A stretch of DNA of 64,000 bases from Opitutia bacterium (GTDB lineage: Bacteria; Verrucomicrobiota; Verrucomicrobiia; Opitutales; T3Sed10-336), in assembly GCA_050506795.1 (NCBI GenBank), contig JBJHCF010000009.1:65801-129800 (forward strand), given 5' to 3'. Under the pieces are notes generated by a model. That model did not search any database. It saw only the letters and a program-made list of their open reading frames with translations, and was not told the origin of the DNA. Positions within the stretch are counted from its first letter, which is position 1; the number at the start of each line of letters is the position of its first letter. The position numbers were made by a program, and so were the translations under genes. This document shows positions 1,717-61,213 of this stretch, one piece after another.

Positions 1717-1725
1717 TGAATTCCA

Positions 1726-32943: not shown

Positions 32944-35900
32944 TTGTTTCCTATGACCGTACCATTTCTTATTCTCCGCCGGGCCCAGGTTAATCTTCTC
33001 TCGACGGTCTGCGGCGCTGCCGGGCTTCTTTTCGGCAGTTTGCAGGCGACGGAATCCCTGGTCACCGATTTTGACGATCCTCTGATTCGTCTTGACGGCT
33101 GGAAGGTTTTAACGGCCGAGGGAGTGGCCAACGATATCGGGAATCCGCGCTGGGAACCCGCGGGCGGCAACCCCGACGGTTACTTCGCGGTGGAGGATCT
33201 AGCGCGCGGCGGGGTGATTTACTACTCGGCGCCGCCGAAGTTTTTGGGCGACCGTTCCGCCGCTTACGGCCTGGAACTGCGGTACGACGTGTCGTCCACC
33301 ACGACAAACAGCAGTTTCGATCGGGACGACCTGGTTTTGGAGGGGGAAAATCTGCGCCTGATCTATCGTCACGATCCGATGCCCGAGCCGGACGGCTGGG
33401 TCTCTTTCTCCCTCTTGCTTGAGGAGGGAAGCCGGTGGCGGGTCATGGACGTTTCCGAGGAATGGGAAGGACACGGCTGGGAGACGGAAGGGGATACACC
33501 TTCCGAGAGTCAGTTTATCGAAGTGCTGGCCGACTTGCGGGGATTGTACATCCGGGGTGAATTCTGGTCCGGGTCGTCTTCGTTGGGCCTGGACAATGTG
33601 GAAATGGAGGTGTTGGCAGGTTCCATTCAAGCCCCTATGGAGGTTGTGGAAGCGTACTGGCTGGGAGGTGACGGCGATTGGACCGATGCCGCCAACTGGA
33701 GCACCGACAGCTATCCGCGCAACGATGTCCCGGAGCAGGGATACCGTTACCGGGCCATCATCGATGCCGAAGGGGATTACACGGTTACCCTGGATGAAGA
33801 TTTGCTGATCGAAGAATTGGAGCTGGATGCGGGCGGGGCCACGCTGGAATTTAATTCCTCCACCCTGTACGCGCCGGAGGGGATCCGACTTTTAGACGGC
33901 CGTATGGAGTTGAACGGCAGTCTCCTGTACGCGACCGAGGTGACCGGAAATCCGCAGGCGACCCTGGCCGTCACCGGGAACAGTCGCTTGCTGGACGTCA
34001 CCCTGCAATCGGTGGAATTGTTTATCGCCAGCGGCAACGACGTGCTGGTTGCGGGTGACTTGACCCTTGACGACGCCGTGATCCGCCTGGACCGGACGTC
34101 GAATTTTGTGGATACGCGGCTGCGTTTCGACGACGGAGCGCTTCAGACGCTGGCCGGAGTGGGAGAAGTGATCTTCGACGGCAGCAGCAGCGGCAATTTG
34201 CACCGACAGCGGGTGGAAGCCATCAACGAGGGCGGCCATCTGGTCGTGGAATCCGGAATTACCGTTCGTACCGGTCAGCAAGGCGGTCAGTTGGGGAACA
34301 CCGACAATCCGATTACCAATTATGGCACCGTTCGTGCGCAAACGGATGGACGATTCATCAATTTTTACGGCTCGAATGCGGTTAATGAAGGCTCCCTGGA
34401 AGCGATCGAAGGGGGTATGCTGAGGATCGACGGAAGCTTTATCAACAACGCCCAGATTTCCGGCGACGATGGAGCCATCGAGTTGCGCGGTGATTGGTCC
34501 AACGCCGGGACCTTGGAAACCGTGGATACCCTGGTCGATTTCGGCAGCGAGTTTACCCTGGCGGACGTCGGTACCTTCAGTCGCGACGGCGGAACGGTAA
34601 GAATTACCGGAACTCTGCACAACACCGGCGCGACCCTCATGCTCGACGAATCGTTCGGTACCTGGGACCTGCACGGGGGTGCCATAATTGGAGGAACGGT
34701 GGCGTCGGACGCCGATTTTCGCCTGCGGGCCACAGCTTCCGGAAGGCTTGAGGAGGTCACCCTGCAATCGGTGGAGCTTTTTCTCGCCAGCGGCAACGAC
34801 GTGCTGGTTGCGGGCGACCTGACCCTGGACGACGCGGTGATCCGTTTCGACCGAACCTCTAACTTTGTGGATACGCGATTGCGCTTCGACGACGGAGCGC
34901 GACAGACCCTGGCTGGGGTGGGGGAAGTGATCTTCGACGGCACCAGCAGCGGCAACCTGCACCGCCAGCGGGTGGAAGCGATCAACGAGGGCGCCCACCT
35001 CGTGCTGGCCGAGGGCATCACCGTGCGCACGGGCACCCAGGCCGGACAGATCGGCAACGCCAATTATCCCTTCACCAATTACGGCCGCCTGGTGGCCGAA
35101 ACCTCCGATCGCAGTCTGCTGGTGGCGGGTAACGATTTCATCAACGAAGGCATTATCGAAGTCCGTGATGGCGGCCGGATCCAAATCAGCGGCCTGGCAG
35201 GAGACCTCAACACTTTGATTATGGACCCCTCCGGCGGCCGGGTCGATCTCGACGGCGATTACACCCTCAATCAGGATGTCACCGTACCGGAAGGCGCCCA
35301 CCTGACGCTTTCCGGAAATTGGACCAATACCGCCACCATTATTCTTGATGAAGGCCGTCTCGACCTCGGTGATACCTACAGCGCGGCCAGTCTGGGAACC
35401 ATTACCCGAACCCGGGGCGAGCTGCGTCTGAGCGGGACTTTGGAGAACGATGATACGGTTTTTGACCTGACCGCGATTTCGGGAGATTCCGGAGAAATCA
35501 CTTTGGACGCCGGAACGATAAACGGCGGGACCTTGACCGGGAACGACGACGTCCTGATCCGGGTGATCAGCAACAGTCGCCTGGAAAACGTTACCCTGTC
35601 CTCGCTGGAACTCTTTATCGCCAGCGGCAACGACGTGCTGGTTGCGGGTGATCTGACCCTCGACGACGCGGTGATCCGTTTCGGGCGAACCTCGAATTTC
35701 GTGGATACACGGCTGCGCTTCGACGACGGAGCGCTACAGACCCTGGCTGGGGTGGGAGAAGTGATCTTCGACGGCACCAGCAGCGGCAACCTGCACCGCC
35801 AGCGGGTGGAAGCGATCAACGAGGGCGCCCACCTGATCCTGGCCGAAGGAATCACCGTGCGCACGGGCACCCAGGCCGGACAGATCGGCAATGCCAGTTA

Positions 35901-38900
35901 CCCCTTCACCAATTATGGCCGGCTGGTGGCGGAAACGGCCAACCGCACTCTTATCGCAGTGGGAAGCGAGTTGGTCAATGAGGGCAGCCTCGAGGCTTTT
36001 GCCGGAGGGCACCTTGATGTGCGCGGACTTTCGGGAGAATCAAACACACTCCTCCTGCAGGATGAAAATAGCCGCATTACCCTCGCGGGTGATTATGTGG
36101 TCAGTGAGGATGTAATCGTTTATCCGGGCACCACACTGAGCCTGACGGGCCAGTGGCACAACCAGGCTACCCTGTTTCTCGACGAAGGACTCCTGAATTG
36201 CGAGGGAGATTTTAATACCGCCGACCTGGGCAATGTGGAGAGCACCGGCGGGAACGTCAGGCTGATCGGAAACCTCGACAACACCGATTCTTTGTTCGAT
36301 ATCGCGGCTTATGCCGGAAACGAAGGAACGGTCAACCTGCACGGCGGAACGATTTCCGGCGGAATCATTTCCGGAAACGGTTCTTCGGTATTGCGGGTGA
36401 CCAATAATGGACGCCTCGACGACGGAATCGTGCTGTCCTCGCTGGAACTCTTCATCGCCAGCGGTAACGACGCGCTGGTTGCGGGCGACCTGACCCTGGA
36501 CGACGCGGTGATCCGTTTCGACCGAACCTCTAACTTTGTGGATACGCGATTGCGCTTCGACGACGGAGCGCTACAGACCCTGGCTGGGGTGGGGGAAGTG
36601 ATCTTCGACGGCACCAGCAGCGGCAACCTGCACCGCCAGCGGGTGGAAGCGATCAACGAGGGCGCCCACCTGGTGCTGGCCGAAGGCATCACCGTACGCA
36701 CAGGCACCCAGGCCGGACAGGTTGGCAACACCAGTTCCCCCTTCACCAATTATGGCCGGCTGGTTGCGGAAACGGCGAACCGGACTTTGATTGTGGCCGG
36801 AAACGATTTTGTCAACGAGGGTATACTGGAAGCTCGAAACGGTGGGACCATTGACGTTCGGGGTTTGACCGGTGATTCCAACGACATTCTTTTTTCCGGG
36901 AATGGAGGCCGAGTCATTCTCGATGGCGACTACGTTATCAATCAGGATGTGCTGGTACCAGCCGAGGCCCGCCTGACGTTGCGGGGGGATTGGATCAACC
37001 AGGCTACGATCACGGCCCAGGAGGGAACGATCGACCTGGAGGGCGATTGGAGCAACGAGGGAGTCCTGGCGGTCAACGACACCCTGATCGACCTGGACGG
37101 GGATATAACGTTGGATGCGTTGGGGACGTTGCAACGCGATGGTGGGACCGTCCGCCTGTTGGGAACCCTGCATAACGAGGGTGGAGTGCTGGCCCTTGAT
37201 TCGACGACCGGGTCGTGGGAATTGCACGGTGGCTCAATTTTGGGCGGTACCGTCAGCGGCGACGGGACCGAGTCGCTCCGGGTCACCAATGACGGCCGAT
37301 TGGATGGCGTGACGCTCTCCTCGGTGGTATTGTTTATCGCCAGCGGCAACGACGTGCTGGTCTCGGGCGACCTGACCCTGGACGACGCCACGATCCGTTT
37401 CGACCGGACGTCGAACTTTACGGATACCCGGCTGCGCTTCGATGATGGCGCGCTGCAGACCCTGGCCGGGTTGGGTGAAGTGATCTTCGACGGCAGCAGC
37501 AGCGGCAACCTGCACCGTCAGCGGGTGGAAGCCATCAACGAGGGCGCCCACCTGGTGCTGGCCGCCGGCATCACCGTGCGCACGGGAACGCAGGCCGGAC
37601 AAATCGGCAACGCCGATTATCCGGTCACCAATCATGGGCGCCTGCTCGCGGAGACGGCCAACCGAACCCTGATTTTGGTGGGAAATGATTTGGTGAACCA
37701 AGGGATCCTGGAAGCTCGCGAAGGAGGTCAGTTGGATGTGCGGGGGCTGACCGGCGACGCGGCAACCGTGCTCCTGGAGGGTGAGTCGAGTCGAATCATC
37801 GTCGACGGAATCTACACTTTAAATGAATCGGTGAACGTGCTTCCCGGCGCTCGCCTGACCTTGAGGGGAGAATGGGAAAATCCGATCGCGGTGACCGTTG
37901 ACGCCGGAACGTTCGACCTGGAGGGAGACTGGAGCAACACCGGCGCCATTTTTGCGTCGGAGTCACTGGTGCAACTGGACGGAACGTTCACTCTGGCCGA
38001 ACTCGGTGATTTCTCGCGCAGTGGAGGAACGGTGCGCCTCACCGGGACGCTGGACAATGCCGAAACCACGCTTGATCTCGATGAAGCGTTCGGCTCCTGG
38101 AATCTGCACGGCGGAACAATCCTCGGAGGAGAGGTGACCGGATCCGAAGACGCGGTACTGGGAATCACCGACGACGGCCGGCTGGAGCAGGTCACTTTGA
38201 GCGGTATCGAACTTTTTATCGCCAGTGGCAACGATGCGCTGGTATCCGGCGACTTGACCCTGGACGACGCGGTCATTCGCTTCGACCGGACCTCGAACTT
38301 CACGGATACGCGGCTGCGCTTCGATGACGGGGCGCTACAGACGCTGGCCGGAGCGGGTGAAGTGATTTTTGACGGCAGCAGCAGCGGCAACCTGCACCGT
38401 CAGCGGGTGGAAGCCATCAACGAGGGCGCCCACCTGGTGCTGGCCGCGGGCATCACCGTGCGCACAGGCGTCCAGGCCGGGCAAATCGGCAATGCGAGTT
38501 ACCCCCTGACCAACCACGGCCGGCTGGTGGCGGAAACCTCCAACCGCACCCTCATCGTGACCGGAAGCGAATTCGTCAACCAGGGAACTCTGGAGGCCAG
38601 AGGCGGCGGCACGCTGGACGCGCAGGACCTCGGAGCCAACGCCGGACATCTCCTGGCGGGCGCCGGTGGCCGAATTATCACCGGAGGAAACCTGGGGGAT
38701 TTTGACAGTTTGACTTTCGAAATCGGAGCGCTTTCCGGGAATCAATTCGGGCGTATCGAAGTTTCCGGCACCGCCACGCTGGGCGAAAGCGCCGAGGTGC
38801 TCCTCACCGGAGAAGCGCCGTTGAACCTCGGGGACAGTTTTACGGTGCTGGAGGCGGGTTCCGTCGAAGGCGTTTTCGCCGAGGTGACCATCCCCGAGGA

Positions 38901-41900
38901 GTCCGGTGTGCCGGTCCTGGAATTGAGCTATGACGCCCAGTCCGTTATCTTCGCGGTCCCGCAGCGCGCGCCGCTTCAGCCCATTGATCCGGTCCCGGCA
39001 GACGGCATGGCCGAGGTGATCATCAACCCGACGCTGAGCTGGAATGATGGCGGGTTGAGTGAATCCTTCCGCCTTCATCTGGGCGTCAACCCCAACCCGA
39101 TGGCGGAACCGGAACTGTCGACCCAGGAAACCACCAGTTTCAATCCCGCCACCCTGGAATGGGGGACCACCTATTACTGGCAAATTGTCGCCCTGAACGA
39201 ATACGGCCAAACCCCGGGTCCGGTTTGGTCGTTCACCACGCGCGATGAACCCGACCTCTCCGCAGGGACCTACTGGACCGCGGCCGGCGGGAATTGGACC
39301 GACGGCGGGAATTGGACCAGCACGCCGCATTACCCGGATAACGAATCCCCCGATCCGGGCGACCGATACACCGTGATCATCGACGCGGCCGGCGTCTACG
39401 AGATTATTCTCGACAGCGATGTCACTATCGATCGCTTGATTCTCGACGCGCCCGGCGCCACCCTTCGTCACACCGGCGGCACACTCACGGTCCTCGACGA
39501 AGTCGAAGTGCTGGCCGGAACCTACGAGCTTGCCGGCGGCACGTTGGCCGAGGGACGTTTGAGCGAGGGAGCGGAAGGCTCGGTCCAGCTGACCGCCAAC
39601 AGCCGCTTCGAAAATGTTACCATCGACTCTTCCCTGGAGATGATTGTCCCCAATTCCCGGATACTTTATGTTTCCGGCGATCTGACTCTGGACAATGCGA
39701 CCGTGCGCATGCACAGCACGGGATCCATCACCCGGATACGCTTTGACGGACAGGAGGAACAGCACCTGGCCGGCGTCGGCGAGGTGGTCTTCGACGGCGA
39801 CAGCACCTCCGACACCCGGCATCGCGTCGAGTCTTGGGGCACCGGCACGCACCTTGTTATCGGCGAAGGGATCACGATCCGGAGCGGGGAAATGGGCGGC
39901 CAGATCGGAGTCTCCCAGGCCCTGACCAACGCCGGAGTCATTGTCTCCGGCACCCCCGGGCGTACGATGGAAGTGACGACCAACGCGACCTTCAACAATA
40001 ACGGAATCCTGGTGGCCGAGAATGGCGGTATTCTGGAGGTGAATGGGCTGATCGGCCCGGCCGGCGCGGTGACGATCCTGGATGCGGGCACGGAGGTTCG
40101 CCTGGACGGGGATTTTGTGGTCGATCAGGACATCGACGTTCCCGCCGGATCGCGTTTGAGTCTGGCCGGAGAAATGGAAAACCTGGCGTCGATCGACGTC
40201 ACTTCCGCCCAACTGGACCTGAGCGGCAATTGGGTGAATAGCGGGTTGATTTCGGCGTTCGATTCCCTGGTCGACCTCGGAGGCGTCTTCCGGTTTTCGG
40301 ACACCGGGATCTTCGACCGCATCGGAGGAACCGTTCGTCTGACCGGAACCCTGAATAACGAAGGCGCGACGCTGCATCTTAATGAGACAACCGGTTCCTG
40401 GGATTTGCATGGAGGGCGCATACTCGGAGGAACGATTGCCTTTGCCGACGGCGAGGCCTTGAACCTCACCACGAGCAGTACCTTGGAGAATACCACCCTG
40501 GATTCTTCGGTAGAGTTCGTGGTGTCCAATGGCAATATACTCTACGTTGCGGGGAATCTGACCCTGAACGACGCGATCGTGCGCATGCACAGCACCGGGT
40601 CGATTACGCGGATTCGCTTCGAAGACGGCGAGGAGCAGCACCTGGCGGGATCGGGAGAAATAGTATTCGATGGCGACAGCACCTCGGACACCCGGCACCG
40701 GGTCGAATCCTGGAGCAGCGGCACCCATCTCATTATCGCCGAAGGCATCACCATCCGGAGTGGAGAAATGGGCGGGCAGATCGGTGTGTCGCGGGATGTC
40801 ACCAATCACGGAACCATCGTATCGGAAACGCCGGGACGCACGGTGGAGGTCGCCACCAATGAGTCTTTCACCAATACCGGAAACCTGCGCGCTGAAAACG
40901 GCGGGGTTCTGGAAGCGGACGGACTGAACGGTCCGGCAGGAGGGATCACCGTAATCGGCCAGGACAGCCGGGTCCTTCTGGACGGAAATTTCGTGGTGAA
41001 TCAGAATATCGACGTTCCCGAGGGAACCCGGCTGGGTCTACTGGGCACGGTCGAAAATCAGGCCGTCATTACCGTAACCGATGCCCGGCTGGACCTCGGT
41101 GGCTCCTGGAGCAACGACGGTGTCATTAACGCCGTCGATTCCCTGGTCGATCTGGGAGGCACTTTCAGTCTGGCCGGTCTCGGCGCCTTCAATCGCACGG
41201 CGGGGACGGTGCGTCTGACGGGCACATTGGAGAATGAGGATGTGACGTTGTTGCTGGACGAGACGACCGGCTCCTGGGATTTGCATGGGGGACGCGTGGT
41301 TGGCGGAACGATAGCCTTCGCCGACGGAGAGACCCTTAATCTCACCGCGAGCAGTACCCTGGAGAACGCTACACTGGATTCTTCGGTGGAGTTCGTGGTG
41401 TCCAATGGCAATATTCTCTACGTTGTGGGGAATCTGACTCTGAACGACGCGATCTTGCGTATGCACAGCACCGGATCGATTACGCGGATCCGCTTCGAAG
41501 ACGGCGAGGAGCAGCACCTGGCCGGCACGGGAGAGATCGTTTTCGATGGCGACAGCACTTCGGACACCCGGCACCGCGTGGAATCCTGGAGCAGCGGCAC
41601 CCATCTTGTTATCGCCGAAGCCATCACCATCCGCAGTGGAGAAATGGGCGGTCAGGTCGGCGTCTCCCGGGCACTGACCAATCACGGCACGATCGTATCG
41701 GAAACACCGGGACGCACGGTGGAAATCAACACCAATGAAACCTTTGTCAACACCGGCTTGCTGTGGGCCTCCGGCGGCGGGGGGTTGACGATCGCCTCCT
41801 TGGAAACCAACACCGGTCACTTGCGCGCCGACGCTTCGAGTCGCATTGAGGTCGGAGACGATGCCGGCACCGGAACCGGATTCCGTACGCAAATCGGTGG

Positions 41901-44900: not shown

Positions 44901-47900
44901 GCCGCTCGACGGATCGTTGTTCAGCGATCCGCAGGTGACGGTCTCCGGCACGGCCGAGCCGGGAGTAGATGTGCAGGTTGTGCGCAACGGCATTGTTCTG
45001 GGAACGGTGACCGCGGGCGGAGACGGAACCTTCACCCTGGAAAACGCCCAGCTTTCGGAGGGCAGCAACACCCTGGTGGCCCGGGCTACCGATGCGGTGG
45101 GTTCGACTTCCTCTCCCGCGGTTAACGTCAACCTCGACACGGTGCCTCCGGCGCCCCTGATCGTGGAGTCGGCCGAGTACCTCACCAATCGGGGAATCCA
45201 GGTGTTCTGGCGCTTCCCGACCAGCGGAAAACGGGCGACCAGTTTTCGCGTCCTTTGGAGCGAGGACCCCATTGAAACCGCCGGTGACGCCGACGGTCAG
45301 AGCGATCCGATCACGGTGACGGATTATCTTATCGAAGGGATCCCTGATGGGGATTATTACATCGCGGTCGTGGGATTCGATGGGGCCGGCAACTCCAGCG
45401 GGCTGTCCAATGTCCTGACCGCGATTTACGACGACACTCCACCGGCCTTCACCATTGCCTACGATCAGGCGATGCCCATGGGGCCCGGGGATTTGGGCAT
45501 TACGCTCACCGCAAGCGAAGCCTTGCGGTCAACCCCGACCCTGACCGTGCGGCCGGCGAATTTTTCCACGCCGATTTCAGTTTCCCTGACCGAAGCCGGA
45601 GGCAATACCTACACGGGGACCTACCTGGTCTCTCCCCTGTCCGGATCGACCGGCACGGCGGAGGTGCGGGTGTCGGGACGCGACCTGGCCGGGAATTCGT
45701 TCGCGGGTGCTCCCTCCGGGCCCGACCTGGTCTTTGACCTTTCCCGTCCGGTCGCGAGCATCGCGGTGGACCAAGCCGAACCGGTTCAGGTTTTCGACGG
45801 CGACACCGATGTGGGAATCACACTTACCCTGAACAAGTCGGTTCCGGGACCGCCTTCGCTCACGTTTTCGCCGCCGGACGGTCCCGGTGTCGCGGTTTCG
45901 CTTTCCGGAGAGGGCAGCGTTTGGGAGGGTATCCTGACTCTGACCGAATCCATGGGCACCGGCCTGGGGACCTTTGTCTTCTCGGTCACGGACGCGCTCG
46001 GCAATGAAGGCACGGCGATCGAGTCGGGTGGTGAGCTGGAAATCTACAACACCGAGGCCGCGCCTCCTCCTCCGGTTCCGACCGGTTTGGAGGCGGTGAC
46101 CCGTACGGCCGGCGAGATCGGCATCCAATGGAATCCTTCCGCCGGCGCCGAAGTGTATCACCTGTACCGCGCCGAAGGCGGCACCGGACCTCATCCTACC
46201 GAGCGTGTTGCCTCCGGACTGACGGAGACCGTCTTTTTCGATACACCGCCGGAGGATGGCTTCTACCGCTATGCGGTTTCCTCCGAACGCCTGGGATCCG
46301 AAAGTGATCTGTCCGGGATGGTTTCCGCCGAGTCCGACCGCACCCCGCCGGAGGTCCCGGAAAACGTCACCGCCGAGCTCGACCTCGCCGGAACGGTCCG
46401 CATCTCCTGGGACGCGCCGTCTTCCGGCGAAACGCCCGCGGGCTACCGCGTGTATCGGAACGATTCACACGTTGCCTCGCGCGCCAACCCCGGAATCGTC
46501 ACCGACGCTCCGCCCCGCGGGGTGAACGCGTACCGGGTGGCATCGGTCGATTCGGTAGGCAACGAAAACCGCAGCGATCCGGTCACAGTGGAACTCTTCG
46601 TGGGCGCGGTGTCTTCGCTGGTGGCGACCGTCACCGAAGGCGGCGCTCCCGAGCTTTCCTGGATCGGGGAGGACGAGGAAGCGGTCGGGTACAACGTCTA
46701 CGCCGGCGGGGAGCTGCTCAACCAGGGCGGTCCTTTGGTGCAACCCGCGTTCAATGCCGCGGAACCGGTCGACGCCGACGCCGTCGAATTCCGCGTACGG
46801 GCGGTCGATAGTGAAGGACGCGAAAGTGCCGCCCGGACCGTCACGGTATACCCGGTGACCGCGGACCTCGGGTTCAATCTTGATTCGGCCGGCAACGACC
46901 GGGAACTCATGGCCCGGTATTTTGATGTTTATGAAATATCGGCGACTCACAGTGCCGACAGCGACTGGGAATTCCAGGAAGTGGCCGTCACCCGCTTTGA
47001 AGGAGGCAATGCGACGGAGATTTCCCTTCCGCTCGACGCGGAGGCCGGACTGGTCGAAGCGGGCGCGGCGGGCTCCTGGGATATCGTCTTTCCCGGGGTG
47101 ATCGACGCCATGGAGGATTACACCTTCATGCTGGAATTGCGTCAGGTGGAGGAGGACGATTCCGTGGCTTTATATCGGGGACATTTCAACGGACCGGTGG
47201 CGGTTGAGCCCTCGATCATGATTGCCGTGACCACGTCGGAACCGCCATTGGCCGGAGGCGAAAACGATTTCCGCGCCCGCCTCTACAACCGGGGTTATGC
47301 CGACATGGATGTGCTGCTGGTGCGCTCCGGCGGGTCGGAGCCGGGGGACCTGATCCTCGAGGTGCTGGACGCCAACGGTTCGGTGGTGCATGCCGTGCCG
47401 TTCGACCGGCCGGTTTCGGGAATGAGTTTCACCGGCGACGGGCGCGGGTACCTGCGCATTCCGCCGGGCGAGTCGAAAAGCGTGCTCTTTGAGAACGTCC
47501 TGGTCCCGGAAAGCCTGGCCGAAGAGGGCAGCGCCCGCATCCGGGTCCGCGCGCCCGCCATTTACCAGGCCATGGGCACCTCCCGCCAGCGCACTTCCGG
47601 ACCCCTTCGCGGGTCCATGACCACGAACCTGGTGGAATCCCCTTATTTCGGAGTTCTCCAAACCGATGCGCCCGGGTATGCCGACGACCAGCCCATCACG
47701 TTGACGGGTCAGGCCATCGATCGCGAGACCGGTCTGCCGGTGCCGAACGCCGACCTGTCGATCGGTTTTTATGTGCGCGGGTTCCATTGGTTCCGTCAGG
47801 TGACCACCGATGAGAACGGCAACTTCACTTACGAATACACTCCCCCGCCCGGATTGAGCGGTTCCATTGGTTTTTGGGCGTCCCATCCCGACGTGGTGGA

Positions 47901-50064: not shown

Positions 50065-53000
50065 ACAGCATTTTGGATATTGGATCGCGGATTTTGGATT
50101 TCCGGAAAGCCGTCATTTCCGGGTTGGGACTTTTGTTCCTGATCTCGGGCGTGGCGCAGGCGCAGCAGCAGTTCGACGGCTGGTGTGCACGGGTGAAAAT
50201 CGAGATCGAGCAGGAAATGACCCTGGAGCGGATCGGATTTGAGGCCACGCTTACGGTCACAAACAACGACGGTGAAGATGCGATCACCGATTTCTTCGCC
50301 AATCTGACCTTCGAGGACCCGGATAATCCCGGGCAGGATGCGTCGGACCTCTTTTTCGTGCGCAGCCCGCAGTTGGAGTTTATCAACAGCGTGAACGGCG
50401 ACGGTGTCATTCAACCCACCCGGACCGCGGTGATTCGCTGGTTCATCATCCCCAAGATCAACGCCGGAGGCACCGATCCGCGGGGCAAGGTGTATCGCGT
50501 CGGATGCAATCTCGGCGGCAAGCTGGGCGGAGTCGAAATTCCCCGTGAGAACATGCTGGTGATTCCAGACAACATCACCGTGCGCCCGGAACCCCAGTTG
50601 CAGATCACCTACTTCATGCCGCGGGATGTGCAGGCGAACAACCCTTTCACCGAGCGCGTGGAAAGCCCGGTCCCGTTCACTCTCGGCGTGCTGGTGACCA
50701 ACGTCGGTTACGGCACCGCCCACGACCTGCAAATCGATTCGCAGCAACCGAAGATCGTGGAGAATCTCCAGGGCCTGCCCCTGGTCGCGCAATTGCTGGG
50801 GGCTCGGGTGATGGATTCACCCCTTGACCGGGCCAGCCTGGTAGTGGACCTCGGTGATATCGAGCCGGGCCAGACCCGGAAAGGGGCCTGGGACATGATC
50901 ACTTCGCTCTCCGGAGAGTTCATCGAGTTCAACGCCACCTACACCCACGCGTCCGAACTCGGGGGTGAGGAAACCTCGGTGATCGCTTCGCTGGACGCGC
51001 ATTTCATCTTGCGAGAGGTCCTCAACGATCAGCCCGGGCGGGATAATATCCTGGATTTTCTGGCTGTTACCGACCGCAACAGCGAAATGATTCCGGACGC
51101 CCTTTACGAAAGTGAGGGCAATATCCTCCCGGTAAATCACCAGACCCAGTTTGAAGTGTTGCAGGAACTCGACGAGGAACTGGAGTTTGTCATCGGGCTG
51201 GTTTCGGGATTTGAAGGCTGGGGGTACCTTCGGCTCGACGATCCGGCGCAGGGTAACTACGACATCGCGCGCGTTACCCGTTCCGACGGCCGCGTCGTGC
51301 ACGAACGCAACGCCTGGACCAGTTTCCGCTACCAACCGGTGACCAACCGGCGGCTGGATTACCTGCACATCTTCGACCTCATGGACGACGGGCAGTACTA
51401 CGAGTACACGGTGGAATACGCCCCAGCCGAGGAGGATACCGAACCGCCGGTTACCGAGATCCTGTTTGCCGGCGAACATACCCGGGTCGGCGGCGTGGTG
51501 TACGTGACTCGCGATACCGAAATTTATTTCATCGCCGAGGACGCCAGCCCGGTCAGCATGTTCTACAAGATTAACGACGACGAGTTTCGTCCGGCCATGC
51601 CGTTCTCGCTCGACGCTCCGGGCAGCTACACCATCACCTATTATTCCGAGGACGCTTTTGGCAACGTCGAGGACGAGAAGGTCCAGTTGGTGGTATTGTC
51701 CGAGGCGCCTCCCGGATTCGACGAGTTCGACGACACGGACCTGCTGCTGGTGCAGAGCGGCGACACGCTTTCAGTGCGTCCCTCCGAAGCCGACCTCGGG
51801 TTCTCCGTCGATCCCACGCCGTTCGCGGTGGAGGCCCGGGCCGATATCTTTCAGGGAGTGGTTGCCTGGCCGCGGGTGATCGGGGTTCCGCCGTCGCCGA
51901 CCTCCAGTGACGAGGTATCCCTGACCATTACCGGCGCGCAGGTTGATTTTTACCGTTATCGCCTGAACGGCGGCGACTGGTCGGCGGAGGCGTCCGCCGC
52001 GGAACCCCTCGAGCTGGAAGGCCTTTCCGGCGGGGTGGAACTGGAGATCCTGGCGCGTTCCGCCCACGGCGCCTACCTGCCGGCTGACGAGGCGCTGGTG
52101 TTGAATTGGAGCGTGTCCGGAAGCGGATACGCCTTTGTCCTGGACGGCATGCCGGCGATCCCGGTGACCGAGAGCCGGGCGGAAATCCTGGTCGGTGGCG
52201 ACGGGTTGGAACTCTATAGGTGGCGTCCCGATAATGATTTCTTCCGGGCGGAGGCCGCCACGAATGTGCCGGTCGAGATCGACCCGCTGGTCTCCGGCGA
52301 TCGGATACTCGACTTTATCGGCCGGTGGAACGGGACCTGGCAGGACACCTCATCCCCGAGTCGTTTGTCCTTTACCGTGGATCCCGCCTACGGGTCCGAT
52401 ATGTCAACCCTGACCCTGGTGCGCAGTTTCGATCTCGGCGAACTGGAGACCGATGAAGTCGCGCTGGTCTGGGACGGGACCGACGACGGCGGACGGGCGG
52501 TGGCATCGGGGTGGTACACCGTTCGGGTGACGCTCGACGACAGTCTCGGACGAAGCAGCCACCGGACCCGGTTGGTGCATGTGGGTGATATGGCGGCCGA
52601 TGCTTCGCTCCTGGCCGGCGCGGCCGATGGCGCCTCGAGACCGCACGCCCGCGGCGACTGGGCGGTCTGGCAGGACCGCACCGAGGGCGCCTGGAACATT
52701 CGGGCGCGCGATCTCGGAGATTCCGAGGCGACGACTTTGGCGATCACTTCCGGTTCGAGAGACCAGACCCATCCGGCCACCGATGGACGTTATGTGGTCT
52801 GGCAGGGGCGGCGTTCCGGCGGGGCCTGGGATGTCTGGCTGGAGGACCTCGAAGGACCGGCCGGTCCGGTGCAACTGACCGATTCCAGCTCGCGGCACGC
52901 GACCCAACCCCTGGTGGACGCCCCCTGGGTGGTCTGGAGGGAGCGTTCGGTGACCGATTCGGAAGCTCCCTGGCAGTTGGTGGCGCATCATTTGGACAGC

Positions 53001-54044
53001 GGAGAATCCTTTACCGTATACGCGGGACCGGAGGACCAGGGGGAAGCCGATTTGCGGGCGGGCCGGCTGGTCTGGCGGGACCAGCGCGATGTGGGGCCGG
53101 GTGAAATCTATTTCGCGGACCTGGAAACCGGTGAACGCCTACGGCTGACCGAGTCCATTCACGGGCAATTCCACCCGGCCGTGGCCGGCCATTGGGTGGT
53201 TTGGCAGGACACCCGGCACGGGGTGTTGGATATTTACGGATACGATTTTCTGCAGGGGCGGGAAGTTCGTCTGACGGAGACGCCGGAGAATGAAGCGCTT
53301 CCGCACCTGGAAGGGTACTGGATGGTGACCGAGGAAGACGGCGCCGGGTTTGGGACCGGGAATTTCCGTCTTTTCCACCTGGAGGCCGGACGTTCGGTGC
53401 CGTTGACCCGGTCGGCGCGCGAGAAAGCCCATCCCGGTTTCGCGGCCGGACATTTCGTGTGGGAGGAGACCGGCGACGAAGGCACGGTGATTCGCGCGGC
53501 CCGACTGCCCGCGTTGCAGGCGGTGTTCGCCGACAACAACGCGGTTGTGGTGACGGCGGGTCTGGCGGAACGATTCGATTCGGCCTTCGCCCTGCTGGAG
53601 AACTGGCGCGACAGCGCCGGAGTGCAGGCCGTCGGACGTTATCAGAGCCTGGTTCCCGAAGTGGTGCGGGAAACGGCGGAATGGAACGGCGGGACCGCGG
53701 GCGACGATTTTCCCATCGAGGAAGGGGATTTCCTGTGGATTCGTTTCGACGACAACCGTTTGATCGAGCTGGGTGAACGGGAAACCGGCGCCGTCGATCT
53801 GGCGGCGGGCGTGAACGCGGTGAGCTACTCCGCATTCCCGGCGGGTTTCCGGGTCTCCCGGGCGGTGGAGCAGTTGGGGCCCAACAACGTGGAAGCCATT
53901 CGTATGTTGGATTCCCGGAATGGGCGCTGGGTGGCGGTCACGATAGAGAACGGCTCCCTGACGGGTCCCGATTTTGCGATTCCCGAAGCGGCCCTGTTGT
54001 TGGTGGAAGTCAAAGAAGCCGTATCCGGCTGGAAACCCGAATGA
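50061..54044 (+). CDS. Secreted 1,327-aa multidomain partner protein
   Basis: ATGA overlap with the giant gene and GGAGG RBS; signal peptide; CARVKIEIEQEMTLER; Ig-like DTEPP unit; FlgD-Ig-like WDGTDDGG..VASGWY; beta-propeller repeats Q.HPA..G.WVVWQD.R. Confidence 0.9.
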   Translation: MNSILDIGSRILDFRKAVISGLGLLFLISGVAQAQQQFDGWCARVKIEIEQEMTLERIGFEATLTVTNNDGEDAITDFFANLTFEDPDNPGQDASDLFFVRSPQLEFINSVNGDGVIQPTRTAVIRWFIIPKINAGGTDPRGKVYRVGCNLGGKLGGVEIPRENMLVIPDNITVRPEPQLQITYFMPRDVQANNPFTERVESPVPFTLGVLVTNVGYGTAHDLQIDSQQPKIVENLQGLPLVAQLLGARVMDSPLDRASLVVDLGDIEPGQTRKGAWDMITSLSGEFIEFNATYTHASELGGEETSVIASLDAHFILREVLNDQPGRDNILDFLAVTDRNSEMIPDALYESEGNILPVNHQTQFEVLQELDEELEFVIGLVSGFEGWGYLRLDDPAQGNYDIARVTRSDGRVVHERNAWTSFRYQPVTNRRLDYLHIFDLMDDGQYYEYTVEYAPAEEDTEPPVTEILFAGEHTRVGGVVYVTRDTEIYFIAEDASPVSMFYKINDDEFRPAMPFSLDAPGSYTITYYSEDAFGNVEDEKVQLVVLSEAPPGFDEFDDTDLLLVQSGDTLSVRPSEADLGFSVDPTPFAVEARADIFQGVVAWPRVIGVPPSPTSSDEVSLTITGAQVDFYRYRLNGGDWSAEASAAEPLELEGLSGGVELEILARSAHGAYLPADEALVLNWSVSGSGYAFVLDGMPAIPVTESRAEILVGGDGLELYRWRPDNDFFRAEAATNVPVEIDPLVSGDRILDFIGRWNGTWQDTSSPSRLSFTVDPAYGSDMSTLTLVRSFDLGELETDEVALVWDGTDDGGRAVASGWYTVRVTLDDSLGRSSHRTRLVHVGDMAADASLLAGAADGASRPHARGDWAVWQDRTEGAWNIRARDLGDSEATTLAITSGSRDQTHPATDGRYVVWQGRRSGGAWDVWLEDLEGPAGPVQLTDSSSRHATQPLVDAPWVVWRERSVTDSEAPWQLVAHHLDSGESFTVYAGPEDQGEADLRAGRLVWRDQRDVGPGEIYFADLETGERLRLTESIHGQFHPAVAGHWVVWQDTRHGVLDIYGYDFLQGREVRLTETPENEALPHLEGYWMVTEEDGAGFGTGNFRLFHLEAGRSVPLTRSAREKAHPGFAAGHFVWEETGDEGTVIRAARLPALQAVFADNNAVVVTAGLAERFDSAFALLENWRDSAGVQAVGRYQSLVPEVVRETAEWNGGTAGDDFPIEEGDFLWIRFDDNRLIELGERETGAVDLAAGVNAVSYSAFPAGFRVSRAVEQLGPNNVEAIRMLDSRNGRWVAVTIENGSLTGPDFAIPEAALLLVEVKEAVSGWKPE

Positions 54045-54925
54045 GTATTTCACGAGTCATGAAAACGTTTTTTCAATTCACGGCCATCACTGTGCTGGCG
54101 ACCTCCACATCCCTGTGGGCGGACATCGGACCATCCGATCTGGCGGAACGCCTGGCAAACGGGGAATCGATCGCGCTGATCGACGTGCGTGGTCAAAGCG
54201 CCTTTACCGAGAACCACATTCCCGGCGCCATGAACATGCCGGAACGGATCTTCCAGGCGCGGAGGTTGCCGTCCTCCCGGGCGATCGTCATTTACGACGA
54301 CGGCCTCGGCCGCGCCGACGCCTCGGCCGCGGTGATCGCGGCACGGGAAAGGGGGCGTAACGATGTCTTGCGTTTGCGTGGCGGTTTGGCGGCCTGGGAA
54401 TCGGCCGGCCTGCCCACCACCGGCGAAAAGGGATTCAGGTCGCAATCGGTGCCGATGATGCTTTATGCTGATTTGGTGCGCGGGCAGGGCCGCGGGGTGA
54501 CGTTGCTCGACGTTCGTGCGGAACCCTCGCCCCCGCAGGGAGGGGCGGTTCCCTTGTCCGGCGGCCCGGCGTTGACCGATTTGGGAACGCTACTTCCGCA
54601 GGCCCGGGTGTTGCGGCCGGGCGGTCGTCCGGACCCGCAAGGGGGCGCGGTTCCTTTGTCCGGAGGAGGCGAACTGGCGGCGAATGTTACGGCGATCGAT
54701 CCCGAAGCGGAATTGATCGTGGTCATCGACAGCGGCGACGGCGCCGGCGAGGACGTGGTGCGGCGGATACGCGCATCGGGCAATCGCCGGGTGGTCCTGC
54801 TGGCCGGCGGCGAGCGCATACTGAGCCGGGAAGGACGTCCGGGCCTGGAGCGACGTTCACTGGGCATCCAGGTAATCGATGCGTCACAGGTGGAAAATCG
54901 GGAAGAAGGGGAGAGCGATCAGTGA
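54041..54925 (+). CDS. Secreted tandem rhodanese-like protein lacking the catalytic Cys
   Basis: IDVR...F...HIPGA and LRGGLAAW; second LLDVR domain; active-site positions read YDDG and IDSG; ATGA overlap. Confidence 0.85.
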   Translation: MSISRVMKTFFQFTAITVLATSTSLWADIGPSDLAERLANGESIALIDVRGQSAFTENHIPGAMNMPERIFQARRLPSSRAIVIYDDGLGRADASAAVIAARERGRNDVLRLRGGLAAWESAGLPTTGEKGFRSQSVPMMLYADLVRGQGRGVTLLDVRAEPSPPQGGAVPLSGGPALTDLGTLLPQARVLRPGGRPDPQGGAVPLSGGGELAANVTAIDPEAELIVVIDSGDGAGEDVVRRIRASGNRRVVLLAGGERILSREGRPGLERRSLGIQVIDASQVENREEGESDQ

Positions 54926-56799
54926 AAGGACCATTCTGCATCAGACCGCGTGGAAGGAATTCCGGGTTCGTTCGTTTGCTGGGCCGATGGACGGCGGCCG
55001 GATGCCTGATGGCGTCAGCCGCAAGCGTGCATGCGGATCCCGAAGCGGGGAATGTGACCCGCGACGGCTTCACGGTTTTCTGGGAAGGCGCTTCCGAGGG
55101 GATTCCGGAAGTCCGGGTGTTTGCGGATGAGGCCGGTGTGGACCCGTTGAGCGAAGGGGTGCGCCGGGAGCGGTTTCCGCTGGCGGAACCGGTGGGACCA
55201 TACAGCGACGTGGCCGAGCGCGCCCAACGCCGGGCCCTGCGCACGGCCCAGGCGGAGCGAGGGCTGCTCGCGGTTCGGGTAACCGGATTGGCGTCCGATA
55301 CGGAGTACCATGTTCAGGCCGGAACGCTCGACACATCGGGAGCTTTCACCGCCGCCCACGAGGGACTTGTGCCGGTAAGGACCGCTCCGTCGACCCCGTT
55401 CTCGGTGGACTACCGGCAGGTGATTGTCGACTTTCAGGATGAATCGGCCGCCGGGTCCCTGGCGGTGCTGCGGGCGCCCGGCGCCCTGGGGCCCCTGGTG
55501 GCGGTGGTGGGCGACTCCTCCGGGGGCGCCGCCAGGGCGCGGTTTTCGCTGGCCGGGCTGCTGGATGAAGCGACCGGGCAGCCGTTGAACCCGGATACGG
55601 AATGGTCGTTTTCGGTGACCCACCTGCCGGGCGATGGCTCCGCGCCCCTGATGCCCGGAAGCGCGCCCCACGACGGGTCCTTCCAGGTGGCGCGGGCCAC
55701 GACGCTGCTTTTCGAGATGCCGGTCGACGTCGACATCGCGGAGTTCGTCTTTGCCCCGATTGGCGACCAGATGGCCGGCCAACCTTTCGCCGTGACCCTT
55801 GAGGCGAGGGATTCCGCGGGCGATCTGATGGAAGTGTTTGAGGGGACCGTGACTCTGGAATCAAACGGACGCCTGGAAGCCGGAGCGACCACCGCGAGTT
55901 TTGCCGGCGGGGTGTTGCAGGGGCACGAAGTGATCATCGGCAACACGGGGGATTTTCGTTTGACCGCGCGGCATGACGCCAGCGGGGCGGAAGGGGAAAG
56001 CGAGCTTTTCGCGGTCAAGACCGACTGGGAAAACTGGATGGCGCTTTACGGAGATCCGGAGGCGGGAGATTCATTGCGGGATCAGCGACTGGCGGATCCT
56101 GAGGGAAGCGGACAGCCCGCGTTGATGCGTTATGCGTTCGATTTGCCCTTCGATGCCTACGAGACGGCGCCGGTGTTGCACGACACCGTGGAAGAGGACG
56201 GTGAGCGTTACCTGACGGTGCGTTTCCGTCGTCTGCGGTACGCGCCGGATGTGCGGTACCTGGTAATGGCCAGCGACACTATGAGCGAGTGGGAAGTGAT
56301 CGAAGTGATCGAACCGGGAACTCCGGAGTGGGTTACGGTGAGCGACGAAAATCCTATCGGCGCGGAGGACAGTCGTTTTATGCGGGTGGGGCTGGTTGCC
56401 GGTGCCACGTTTGATTTCTGGCGAACCGGGGAATTCGGTATCGCGGCTTTGAACGATCCGGAGGTGAGCGGCAAGTTCGCCGACCCCGGCAATCACGGCG
56501 TGAACAACCTTGAGCGCTACGCATTGGGCATGGGGGGCCTGGATCCGGACCTGGGACGCGCGCCCGAACGACGGATCGTGTCCGAAGGCGGGGTCGATTA
56601 CCAGGAGCTTCACTTCGAGCGCCTCCCGGCTGGAGAAGACGTGCGGTACCGGGTGGAGGCGACCTCCGATTTTCCCCACTGGGAAACCATCGATGAGTTC
56701 GGGCCCGGACAACCGGTGGCGATGGCCGTGCGCGACACCCAACCGGTTCCGGAAAGCGGATACCGCATTATGCGACTCGTAATTGAAGAGGCTCCCTGA
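54922..56799 (+). CDS. Secreted FN3/Ig protein with two copies of a C-terminal domain
   Basis: GTGA overlap; VTGLASDTEYHV FN3; AGQPFAVTLEARD Ig; twice ADP....L.RYA...L.F.RL...VRY.V.A...W...MR. Confidence 0.8.
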   Translation: MKGPFCIRPRGRNSGFVRLLGRWTAAGCLMASAASVHADPEAGNVTRDGFTVFWEGASEGIPEVRVFADEAGVDPLSEGVRRERFPLAEPVGPYSDVAERAQRRALRTAQAERGLLAVRVTGLASDTEYHVQAGTLDTSGAFTAAHEGLVPVRTAPSTPFSVDYRQVIVDFQDESAAGSLAVLRAPGALGPLVAVVGDSSGGAARARFSLAGLLDEATGQPLNPDTEWSFSVTHLPGDGSAPLMPGSAPHDGSFQVARATTLLFEMPVDVDIAEFVFAPIGDQMAGQPFAVTLEARDSAGDLMEVFEGTVTLESNGRLEAGATTASFAGGVLQGHEVIIGNTGDFRLTARHDASGAEGESELFAVKTDWENWMALYGDPEAGDSLRDQRLADPEGSGQPALMRYAFDLPFDAYETAPVLHDTVEEDGERYLTVRFRRLRYAPDVRYLVMASDTMSEWEVIEVIEPGTPEWVTVSDENPIGAEDSRFMRVGLVAGATFDFWRTGEFGIAALNDPEVSGKFADPGNHGVNNLERYALGMGGLDPDLGRAPERRIVSEGGVDYQELHFERLPAGEDVRYRVEATSDFPHWETIDEFGPGQPVAMAVRDTQPVPESGYRIMRLVIEEAP

Positions 56800-56842
56800 T
56801 TTGGAATTGCACGATTTATTGAACAACCGAGACTGAAAAACC

Positions 56843-57586: not shown

Positions 57587-57734
57587 GGGAGTCCGAGAAA
57601 GCCGGCTCGGCCGTCGCTGAACGCATCCAAAGCTCGCAGATAAAAGACCGTGACCCAACCCGGTGGCGCGTTGCTTTCGTCCTTGTCCGGGACAATCCGA
57701 TCTGATAATGCCTAGGGTCTAATTACCTTAGAAT

Positions 57735-59774: not shown

Positions 59775-59954
59775 GGCGTCCCTGATGTACCCGACGGGCG
59801 TTGTGCGTCCGGTGAAGTGAAGGCATGCCTTCGAGGCGTAAACCGAATGGCCGTCTCGCGAAAATAAATCAAAAAAATGTTGACCTGATTCGGTTTCTTC
59901 GGCAGCAAAACAATAAGTTTGCTTTTCGTTTTTCTTCATTACCACCACGCCAAG

Positions 59955-60080
59955 ATGAAAACCCCGGCTATCGCGCACCCTGAATGCCATTCCAGTGGCG
60001 CTGATTTCACTTTATCGCCGATCGAGGTCGTCGAGGAATCCCGAGGATTTTTGATGGGGCTCGATCAACTCTCTCTCTAA
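59955..60080 (+). CDS. Possible 41-aa small ORF or leader peptide
   Basis: MKTPAIAHPECHSSGADFTLSPIEVVEESRGFLMGLDQLSL between an AT-rich tract and two terminators; no RBS seen. Confidence 0.25.
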   Translation: MKTPAIAHPECHSSGADFTLSPIEVVEESRGFLMGLDQLSL

Positions 60081-60129
60081 CGTTATCGCGTCTGGCGGAA
60101 TCGTATCCGTCTCGCTCGCACAATTTTTC

Positions 60130-60155: not shown

Positions 60156-60161
60156 CTTGCC

Positions 60162-60231: not shown

Positions 60232-61188
60232 ATGACCTCCAAAGTCCGCATTTGCCTCATTGCCGCCCTGACGATGACGATGCCTGCTCTCGCCACAGCG
60301 ACCTTACCGTTTCACACTTCATTCTCACAGGAGGAAGGATTTTTTGCCGGATCGGCTCCCGGTCGAGGTTGGGTGGTGCAACCGCGTGCCACGGTTGTGG
60401 CGACCGATCATTCGATTCAAGCGGACCAGGCGGTTTTACTCTATCATGGAAGGCCGCCGGGATTCCTTCAACGTGGCTTCGCTCCGAATGGGAGCGATAT
60501 TATATTCGTGGACCTTTTTGTACGTCCGGCCGCCGGACACATCACGTCGGAAAGCACACGTATCAGATTCGATTCCGTTGGAGTGGCGTTTCTGCAATCT
60601 GAGGCCGGGGCAACCATCGCCGCAACCGATATTTCTCCCGATCTACGCGTCGATTGGATCGATCTCGGCTATTCGATCCCGATCGACAGCCTGGGCCGAG
60701 GGACGGACTGGACCAGAATCACCCTGCGATTGGATTACGGAGTCGCGGCCGGACAAGGCTACTATGATATCTATGTCGACGGAATGCTCATGGAGTACGA
60801 CCTGGCGTTCCAACCCCGACGCTTTCAATCCGGCAGGACCCTTGAAATCACCGGCGCCCTGGGAGCGGAAACCTGGGTCGACTACATTTACGCGGGCGAG
60901 GAGAATCCCCTCTTCGAGGACCACGGCACAGGCATTCCTGAAGACTGGTTGCTTTCCGAAGGGCTCTTTCCCGACGACGAAGCCAGGTTCACAATACTTG
61001 CCGATGGACGATTGGCCATCGATGCGTATCTCGATCACAACCGTACGGTTGCTCCGAATTCGGAGTCGCGCGGAAGGGTTTTGGAGAGCGGACGAAGGAC
61101 GAGTGATCGAAGATTGGCGGTATTCACACGACTCGAGAAGCCTAATCCGGAAATTCAAGCGTTAATTCGGAGTTTTAAGAACCAGTAA
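60232..61188 (+). CDS. Secreted hypothetical protein upstream of Rhs gene
   Basis: Signal peptide; beta-sandwich-like WTRITLRLDY...YDIYVDG; degenerate D..G.P..W motif. Confidence 0.7.
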   Translation: MTSKVRICLIAALTMTMPALATATLPFHTSFSQEEGFFAGSAPGRGWVVQPRATVVATDHSIQADQAVLLYHGRPPGFLQRGFAPNGSDIIFVDLFVRPAAGHITSESTRIRFDSVGVAFLQSEAGATIAATDISPDLRVDWIDLGYSIPIDSLGRGTDWTRITLRLDYGVAAGQGYYDIYVDGMLMEYDLAFQPRRFQSGRTLEITGALGAETWVDYIYAGEENPLFEDHGTGIPEDWLLSEGLFPDDEARFTILADGRLAIDAYLDHNRTVAPNSESRGRVLESGRRTSDRRLAVFTRLEKPNPEIQALIRSFKNQ

Positions 61189-61213
61189 GATCCCAAAGAA
61201 CGAAAATACAGAA

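Follow-up and report, generated by a model that had tools for sequence, protein, structure and literature searches.

Hint domains form thioesters autocatalytically, and towards the end of the Hedgehog Hint a further Cys is conserved. Acyl activation also makes extracellular covalent links in self-crosslinking adhesins (the FrpC self-processing module, thioester-domain adhesins and sortase pili). Among the closest described relatives, the ciliate domain BIL2 (of Tetrahymena BUBL) is described as conjugating ubl4 to other proteins (PMC8616854), type A BILs as ligating through a free amino group (PMC4031507), and umbrella particles as coming from Actinobacteria only (PMC11062931). A bacterial Hint group (Burglin 2008; Dassa and Pietrokovski) is described as secreted, with two conserved upstream Cys, a divergent C-terminal Hint and a shared N-region (PMC2362128), a layout that, compared by description only, resembles gene A of the locus reported here. 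Here, we describe a cassette of four genes (A to D) in a 64,000-nucleotide window, the whole stretch of DNA that was analysed, from an Opitutia bacterium, with the following features (residues of A counted from TTG 32944):

32953..50064, plus strand: gene A, giant secreted protein, 5,703 aa from ATG 32953 or 5,706 aa from TTG 32944
33049..42600, plus strand: swappable head of A (aa ~36-3220) with Laminin_B (93-225), six plus three repeats of ~280-290 aa, and SdrD_B
42601..48618, plus strand: constant stalk of A (aa ~3220-5225) with FN3, beta-helix and Big domains
48619..49218, plus strand: clasp module of A, CarboxypepD_reg, long beta-hairpin (48892-48990) and Ig, predicted to interlock with B
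49219..49602, plus strand: pre-Hint segment of A, three hydrophobic/amphipathic helices bounded by invariant C5448 and C5518, then a Gly-rich linker to the predicted scissile G5553
49603..50016, plus strand: Hint domain (A5554-5691) with C5554 (Cys1), T5623 and H5626, ending E-D-V-C with invariant C5691, followed by a 15-aa tail
50061..54044, plus strand: gene B, adaptor, 1,327 aa, with an unnamed 420-aa three-domain beta N-region, OmpL47-type Ig, FlgD Ig, TIGR04275 propeller and tail
50163..50186, plus strand: predicted mature N-terminus of B (Q35-C42, x-Q-Q-F-x-G-x-C), candidate acyl acceptor
54041..54925, plus strand: gene C, secreted double rhodanese, 294 aa
54922..56799, plus strand: gene D, FN3-like N-region and swappable tail, 625 aa
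56843..57586, plus strand: gene E, accessory PEP-CTERM protein (Pfam/NCBIfam matches)
57735..59774, plus strand: gene F, FG-GAP/ASPIC protein ending in a terminal module also found on D

The four consecutive reading frames of the original prediction, with their 4-nt stop/start overlaps (ATGA, ATGA, GTGA), were re-found on the sequence. ATG 32953, with AGGA 10 nt upstream, is the likelier start of A. Genes A and B overlap in 44 of 67 relatives, by 4 nt in 38 of those 44 (the start closest to the stop was chosen, which biases the count towards overlap), which is more than coincidence. Promoter and terminator scans of 49000-61000 gave chance-level results only, and Rfam had no match at the cassette. 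Gene E, overlooked earlier, starts 43 nt after D; its homologues follow D in 4 close relatives only, and PEP-CTERM-like genes follow D in 9/40 loci. Gene F is not conserved with the cassette across relatives. As predicted, profile searches of A gave no autotransporter barrel or PEP-CTERM tail and 0 RTX nonapeptide matches, and no TpsB or T1SS genes were found among the window ORFs searched, including 28 other upstream ORFs; the hallmarks of T5SS/T1SS giant adhesins (barrel, TPS with TpsB, RTX with ABC exporter) were found neither in A-D nor among those ORFs, and the one partial ShlB match in the genome lies on another contig. Judged by eye, without a predictor, all four N-termini are signal-peptide-like, and A-D would each be exported separately via Sec.

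The cassette recurs in 75 loci from several phyla and, where testable, has the Hint upstream in 66/66, C in 64/64 and D in 49/50. Conserved order and swapped giant N-termini, the pattern proposed as a check, were both found in relatives and, with the modelled A-B binding below, strongly support a dedicated conserved extracellular system. Similarity to A begins at 3220-3274 in 20/20 relatives fetched, so that ~2,450 C-terminal residues are kept and the adhesive head is exchanged, with FG-GAP, LamG, C-lectin, PA14, CARDB, DUF11 or beta-helix instead (Pfam scan of 16 of the 20). Two sets of sequences were used, A1 with the query plus 62 of 75 loci and A2 with the query plus 60. Conservation in A peaks at the clasp hairpin (0.83), and the remaining segments as far as the Hint end score 0.33-0.61.

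B matched FlgD_ig and TIGR04275 propeller repeats, in line with its prediction as an Ig/FlgD/beta-propeller protein. Its N-domain had no Pfam/NCBIfam or PDB sequence match (0 hits), fold search returned generic Ig matches only (best Z 8.4), and B falls in unnamed clusters of the protein atlas. The pair of clasp and B N-domain occurs in 1,978 clusters (50% identity, E at most 1e-30), with the clasp module in 31/42 genomes that have the B domain versus 0/20 without it. In 53 of 61 long proteins, one polypeptide carries the clasp and, 82-562 aa further on, the B N-domain. These fused giants (CARDB/CarboxypepD) span bacteria (Verrucomicrobiota, Bacteroidota), archaea and a sponge adhesion GPCR, and share the clasp, the B N-domain and a lineage-typical tail with the cassette, but are single chains without a Hint (0/61) and have no rhodanese or transglutaminase-like (TG) gene beside the 7 giants whose loci were read. 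A search of proteins of 2,324-5,000 aa turned up no Hint-containing A-B fusion; in one locus (L079) A, Hint and B share a frame, but the internal signal-like segment of B is kept, which looks like a lost stop, and it was not taken as evidence. In the fused chains, the post-Ig segment of A continues into the N-terminus of B, which is the same bond that ligation would make. The cassette and its split/fused relationship can be accepted with high confidence.

Modelling the C-terminal region of A with a partner, as had been proposed, was run for B and supported binding, with a score of 0.87 versus 0.02 for the best of 3 controls; the mark applied to such scores is reached by 116/157 solved complexes and 2/215 mismatched pairs. 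At least 89% of contacts are shared between runs, partner pLDDT is at least 85, and the prediction is an interlock of swapped β-hairpins whose interface is residues 92-124 of the modelled A piece. Docking would use A5317-5349 and B45-70, and is supported by fusion and co-occurrence. Halves of a split gene, such as A and B, often pass tests of this kind, although no solved relative of the B domain was found by sequence. The confident interface includes neither the Hint nor the helices before it, nor the first five residues of the B piece that was modelled, so the model is silent on the acceptor.

The C-terminal Hint predicted on A scores below the Pfam cut-off (PT-HINT/Hint), gives PDB profile matches to E 5.5e-19, and has a structural model whose closest fold is BIL2 (PDB 6y75/6tmm; E 6e-10, TM 0.74 over target). 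Sixty-one Hint sequences (31-81% identity to the query) keep the intein class 1 residues Cys1 (61/61), Thr B:7 (60/61) and His B:10 (61/61), with class 1 features as described in PMC4031507. The terminal position is D41/Q10/E6/H4 and never Asn (0/61), followed by a variable +1 and Cys at +2; block F position 4 holds Thr, Asn, Ser or Gly, and in no sequence the usual Asp. The C-terminal His-Asn of BIL type A and PT-HINT is found in 0/61. Of the marks of BIL type B/Hint_2, namely lack of the block G His-Asn and a match to PF13403, the His-Asn is lacking here, but PF13403 matches only 22/61 and not the window's copy. The conserved C-extein of class 1 inteins is likewise absent; the tail is 8-63 aa and unconserved in 68/69 (conservation 0.18), and being so short and unconserved, would release nothing useful. 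Because the terminal Asn is absent, C-terminal cleavage and cis-splicing have presumably been lost, and the intact Cys1/Thr/His suggest an N-S acyl shift at G5553-C5554. BIL2 and type A BIL (2lwy) share Cys1/Thr/His and offer a precedent for N-flank ligation, whereas the Hint of A has no His-Asn end, is terminal rather than internal, and belongs to a secreted 5.7k-aa protein whose clasped partner is encoded separately.

Polymorphic toxins (RHS; Streptomyces umbrella UmbA-C) resemble the cassette in having a giant Hint protein, partner subunits and lectin modules, as described in PMC11062931, and Hint-less TG-type loci of the clasp family do carry RHS giants. The cassette could be derived from an RHS/Hint platform that has lost its shell and toxin, with an inert Hint as structural or redox (C5554-C5691 disulfide) cap and A and B held by clasp plus disulfide: PT-HINT is the best Pfam class for 42/61 Hints at E of at most 0.001, the top PDB sequence match is the umbrella-toxin Hint 8w20, C5691 is invariant, and one relative (L151) carries clasp, RHS, Hint and a toxin-like tail. 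We regard this as very unlikely, since Cys1, Thr and His are kept across such divergent sequences, Hint-type loci have no RHS match, and no immunity-like neighbour recurs among 715 flanking ORFs. A parity test for an A-B disulfide gave no pattern (17/15/14/13). The cassette also differs from these toxins in having nothing after the Hint, no immunity gene, and variation that is N-terminal; no ALF or trypsin family matches were found in A-D, which leaves the Hint alone as the likeness to umbrella particles.

Hint-type loci alone have a fixed-length N-terminal peptide on B, carrying Gln at position -5 (67/70), Gly at position -2 (70/70) and the Cys (70/70); in 44 B proteins of non-Hint type the corresponding stretch is acidic and short. 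Predicted mature B begins with Gln in 53/70, which could cyclise and block the amine; PF05096 cyclase was not found in this genome. Cys42 was considered as attacking nucleophile and set aside, as fused forms keep the Cys too (42/43 junctions with a Cys-rich loop, 4/13 with a Cys-poor loop), and this invariant residue looks structural. Our tentative reading, which we hold at a little below an even chance, is that the Hint thioester ligates A to B in trans after export, with B as acceptor. In its weakest step, the thioester at Gly5553 would be passed to B, probably to its free N-terminus, and this transfer would close the loop that fused relatives encode genetically.

A payload-free C-terminal Hint on secreted proteins with variable N-termini is also the Hedgehog layout described in PMC7765530, and the pre-Hint segment is hydrophobic, with a maximal 19-residue hydropathy above 1.6 in 31/61 sequences, low pLDDT when folded, and no fold-search match listed. 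The strand-swapped clasp could, on the model, hold A and B without a covalent bond, and the thioester would then be passed to some other part of the envelope (a lipid, an amine, D or a further A chain), so that the new C-terminus with its hydrophobic helices is held in the membrane. Such an arrangement is somewhat unlikely: a sterol-recognition region was not found after the Hint (only the 8-63 aa tail), hydropathy of the window's copy is only 1.23, D already has a terminal sorting-like tail, and both the Hint-specific N-terminal peptide of B and the Hint position at the fusion point are left unexplained. Hedgehog/Hog proteins are alike in being secreted with a variable N-terminus, in a C-terminal Hint whose chemistry is confined to its N-side, and in the second Cys near the Hint end; they differ from this four-gene bacterial assembly, and match the Hint more weakly than do BILs (E 6e-5 versus 1e-18).

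Gene C matched rhodanese and, as predicted, has no Cys in the window's copy, and so lacks the catalytic Cys of active rhodanese sulfurtransferase; 31/63 relatives have no Cys after residue 25. It is not beside the 7 fused giants whose loci were read and is likely an assembly helper. D, predicted as an FN3/Ig protein, has no Pfam match itself, although relatives match fn3/Pur_ac_phosph_N and the protein atlas gave a weak fn3 lead (0.76). Its FN3-like N-region (~330 aa) is conserved and its C-terminal tail exchanged among relatives, here for a terminal module that is common in the genome and stands twice on D (56026-56796), elsewhere for dockerin-like or GlyGly-type tails. This module stands at the C-terminal end in 94/98 ORFs bearing it in the genome, which has two exosortases; a PEP-CTERM tail occurs on none of A-D, only on E. 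The common tail is on A in 0/69 and B in 0/68, and D has it or another lineage-typical tail in 17/52. The suggestion that the Hint replaces a normal anchor is thus only partly supported: A and B lack the common tail, but D, a likely anchor subunit, would provide the lineage's surface tail, and the anchor has probably been shifted onto D. At the place of the Hint, the chain of Hint-less relatives continues covalently into B, which points to joining rather than anchoring.

A third, Hint-less split form has a TG gene in 26/39 loci, compared with 1/75 Hint loci (a degenerate copy) and 0/7 fused loci, and TG Cys/His motifs are intact in 29/30. In the other 13/39 the 20 kb fetched did not contain a TG; for several of these it lies at a distance of 15-38 kb, and for some it is missing from the surrounding 100 kb. 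By genome, a full-length TG of the subfamily was found in 3/33 Hint-type, 0/7 fused-type and 8/14 Hint-less split genomes, the remaining 6/14 being without. TG and Hint both act through an acyl-thioester. The B domains of Hint-type loci group in a single clade (support 1.0; 42 of these sequences used in the tree), so the Hint-for-TG swap is a single event and not independent evidence.

Behind the clasp module of TG loci there is often a Gly/Cys linker and then an RHS shell, which would be an obvious piece to set free, and TG could be a LapG-like protease releasing an RHS toxin. The Hint might correspondingly only hydrolyse itself off as timer or chaperone, unmasking helices for membrane insertion or oligomerisation; type B BILs are described as cleaving without coupling to splicing (PMC4031507) and, in polymorphic toxins, HINT as a peptidase that acts in release (PMC3482391). 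We consider cleavage alone unlikely, as the released piece would be the Hint plus ~15 residues, a product that a stop codon would yield equally, and fused relatives have neither Hint nor TG.

With ligation in trans as the preferred reading, a broader and more doubtful proposal is that a widespread clasp splits giants into separately exported cargo and base, rejoined covalently by interchangeable thioester chemistries, with payload-free trans Hint or TG as a new kind of sortase. Each chemical step has a precedent, and the assembly has none as far as the literature searched reaches; no description was found in full text, with most subscription journals outside the search, and supplements of PMC3482391, PMC2362128 and a giant-gene preprint may list the proteins. 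The FrpC module, thioester-domain adhesins and sortase pili have unrelated folds, compared with an intein-family domain and split-gene clasp here. If ligation in trans is correct, it would be an undescribed way to build giant surface proteins, in which intein chemistry links two secreted proteins from separate genes although only one has an intein part, and it would explain what bacterial Hint domains do when they are terminal and have nothing to release. Since the domain pair occurs fused, Hint-split and TG-split, it offers a general answer to how diderms mount adhesins of 4,000-10,000 residues, and RHS carriers, on one common base. With 480 + 420 residues the pair is small and could become a self-ligating tag. 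Cultured hosts of the cassette include Haloferula sargassicola (L052) and Desulfatibacillum alkenivorans (L093).

The original prediction described four consecutive genes joined by ATGA, ATGA and GTGA overlaps, and ORF calls in the window bore out the genes, their lengths and these overlaps. The genes and the features beyond them are:
32953..50064, plus strand: A, giant secreted protein with C-terminal Hint; start codon probably ATG 32953 (residues counted from TTG 32944)
50061..54044, plus strand: B, adaptor
54041..54925, plus strand: C, rhodanese without Cys
54922..56799, plus strand: D, likely anchor subunit
from 43 nt after D: PEP-CTERM gene
56026..56796 and 59500..59774: terminal module, ending 94/98 carrier ORFs
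60232..63901: two secreted-looking ORFs

A consists of Laminin_B, nine ~285-aa repeats, FN3/Big/beta-helix and CarboxypepD_reg domains before its terminal Hint, and no RTX, barrel or PEP-CTERM signature was found in it, in agreement with the original prediction. The domain make-up proposed for B, C and D also held, except that the FN3 label of D rests on relatives. The clasp-plus-Hint end of A (CarboxypepD_reg, hairpin, Ig and Hint) is present in a single copy in the window's genome.

Scanning genome contigs with the N-domain of B gave 95 pattern matches, of which 75 loci were kept. Their labels span Verrucomicrobiota, Desulfobacterota, Myxococcota, Gammaproteobacteria and other groups, with some MAG labels appearing doubtful. 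The closest relatives that have a name belong mostly to Verrucomicrobiota, so the host is probably a member as well. Conserved gene order, which the original prediction proposed as a check, was recovered, with Hint directly upstream of B in 66/66 loci where the DNA reached far enough, the rhodanese following B in 64/64 testable loci, and D in 49/50 testable loci. In a reciprocal search not conditioned on B, the clasp-plus-Hint end was found in 3 of 300 genomes of the phylum, each time adjoining B. No description of the cassette was found in the literature searched, and we conclude that it is a real, widespread and apparently undescribed assembly system, in which the roles of C and D are putative. 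Gaps of ~700 nt, between C and D in loci L086, L087 and L099 and between B and C in L091, probably hold an extra small gene. In L079:2-13900, A, Hint and B share one reading frame with the signal-like segment of B kept, reflecting either a lost stop or an assembly artefact. Nine stretches, at L075:13390-16107 and 8 other loci, have a member of one subtilase/P-domain protein family near the cassette (Pfam for L075).

Swapped N-termini of the giant protein, the other part of the proposed check, were seen in each of the 20 relatives retrieved: they match A without interruption from residue ~3220-3274 onward, and the 1,254-4,836 residues ahead differ, with weak likeness (21-25%) to A's repeats in the heads of 3. 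These heads are adhesion modules (FG-GAP, LamG, C-lectin, PA14, LCCL, CARDB, DUF11, Ig or beta-helix in 16 relatives scanned). D mirrors A, with a conserved N-region and lineage-typical tails. The terminal module of the window's D, without a Pfam or NCBIfam name at either window position, occurs in 98 ORFs of the genome, lying at most 45 residues from the C-terminus in 94, and is carried by 0/69 A, 0/68 B and 17/52 D proteins and by 3/8 giants holding both clasp module and B domain; it is a candidate verrucomicrobial sorting or anchoring signal. Dockerin-like repeats instead end the D proteins of Desulfobacterota, and also 9/43 Hint-less B proteins.

The N-domain of B, unnamed and represented by 1,978 clusters at E<=1e-30, folds confidently into three beta domains (pLDDT 90), and PDB sequence and fold searches found no solved relative. 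Among 61 long proteins carrying it (58 from one search and 3 from another), none with a Hint, A's last CarboxypepD/Ig module precedes the domain on the same polypeptide by 82-562 residues in 53, and lies at the N-terminus in 7 (1/61 unresolved). In split genomes, the A module is present in 31/42 with the B domain vs 0/20 without. A and B each make up one half of a single unit. Modelling of the giant's C-terminal part with its partner, as originally suggested, scored 0.87 for A-B vs 0.02 for the best control (the score mark is reached by 116/157 solved complexes and 2/215 mismatched pairs), with contacts agreeing between runs in at least 89% and partner pLDDT of at least 85. Hairpin 5317-5349, the most conserved stretch at A's end, is predicted to pair antiparallel with B's first hairpin and B 283-297, and Hint lies outside the confident interface. 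The model supports binding but does not show it, as split-gene halves tend to pass such tests. Among the long carriers are PF18962-bearing proteins of Bacteroidota, proteins from archaea and an adhesion GPCR of Dysidea avara (P0309, 3,651 aa; Calx-beta, GAIN, 7tm_2) with clasp module and B N-domain at its front (cf. P0124, P0132, P0315); the pair has thus reached animals. P0124 has the pair three times, then a membrane segment. At G482:C1:1204191-1264935, one B gene is followed by four clasp-module genes (1,710-4,796 aa), which suggests that several cargoes share one base.

The Hint domain keeps Cys1 (C5554 in A) in 61/61, Thr B:7 in 60/61 and His B:10 in 61/61; that it is an inert relic is very improbable. 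Its terminal residue is Asn in 0/61, position +1 is variable, Cys at +2 is invariant, and a tail of 8-63 residues follows in 68/69. Because of this residue pattern and short tail, an N-side acyl shift is likely, C-side cleavage is unlikely and nothing of value would be released; therefore the useful product is likely the activated C-terminus of A, to which a Gly-rich linker leads (median 12 Gly in 30). In structure, the Hint comes nearest to ciliate BIL2 and BIL-A domains; according to PMC8616854, BIL2 conjugates its N-flank to other proteins. By their defining tests, the cassette Hint is neither an intein nor a BIL-A domain, and the cassette is not a Hog protein, polymorphic toxin, umbrella toxin or T1SS/T5SS adhesin. 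Towards BIL-B the signs are mixed: the terminal His-Asn is absent, as in that type, and PF13403 matches 22/61 sequences but not the window's copy. The cassette may apply Hedgehog- or BIL2-like chemistry to a giant adhesin, and its multi-subunit make-up is like that of umbrella particles. Its layout resembles that of the bacterial terminal-Hint group described in PMC2362128.

In Hint-less split loci, stand-alone B adjoins a rhodanese and a transglutaminase-like gene (TG), often with a giant bearing the clasp module, then an RHS shell. TG and Hint are exclusive: TG occurs in 26/39 of these loci (20-kb loci), 1/75 Hint loci (20 upstream extensions also covered) and 0/7 fused loci, and the Hint-locus copy, in L091, is the sole one of 30 without Cys and His motifs. 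This degenerate gene (L091:20047-20964, just after D) is a possible intermediate in Hint/TG replacement. Genome-wide, full-length TG is found in 8/14 Hint-less split, 0/7 fused-type and 3/33 Hint-type genomes, in one of which it adjoins RHS-type loci; none was found in the window's genome. Two or more terminal Cys are found in 20/24 rhodaneses of TG-type vs 0/63 of Hint-type, and B starts with a fixed x-Q-Q-F-x-G-x-C in Hint-type but is short and acidic there in others. Hint-type B domains form one clade (tree support 1.0), therefore the Hint/TG contrast counts as one replacement and carries no statistic. TG-B-rhodanese(CxxC) clusters with giants of 3,000-11,000 aa, often clasp plus RHS (L150-L158, L166-L204; Desulfobacteria class and Verrucomicrobiota), form a separate RHS carrier platform that is apparently undescribed; the B domain occurs in 46/301 genomes of the Desulfobacteria class sample. 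Hint-less L166 and L167 have a D-like gene as the immediate upstream neighbour of B, and the stretch contains neither rhodanese nor TG.

In the three forms, fusion, TG or Hint fills one common slot. The fusion is covalent, and TG and Hint chemistries both proceed via acyl-thioesters. Joining cargo to base is the simplest reading of their common purpose, so transfer of A onto B is tentatively favoured at somewhat under even chances. The N-terminal amine of B would most likely be the acceptor, yielding a product that reproduces the fused topology. Against this transfer, no reaction has been seen, the clasp by itself may suffice and B's N-terminal Gln may be blocked, and Hint may instead pass A to an envelope or lipid acceptor, which is somewhat unlikely. 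TG, too, may merely cut, and that Hint performs cleavage only is unlikely. The invariant Cys of B is probably a structural disulfide (present in 42/43 fused junctions whose loop is Cys-rich vs 4/13 whose loop is Cys-poor). The cassette proteins are presumably exported, and the window's genome has five secretins.

The window's far end is the contig end, near which GC falls to 0.52 across 60232-63901; no family matches were found for the two ORFs there, and by eye the 895-aa ORF resembles the start of an RHS-type protein.
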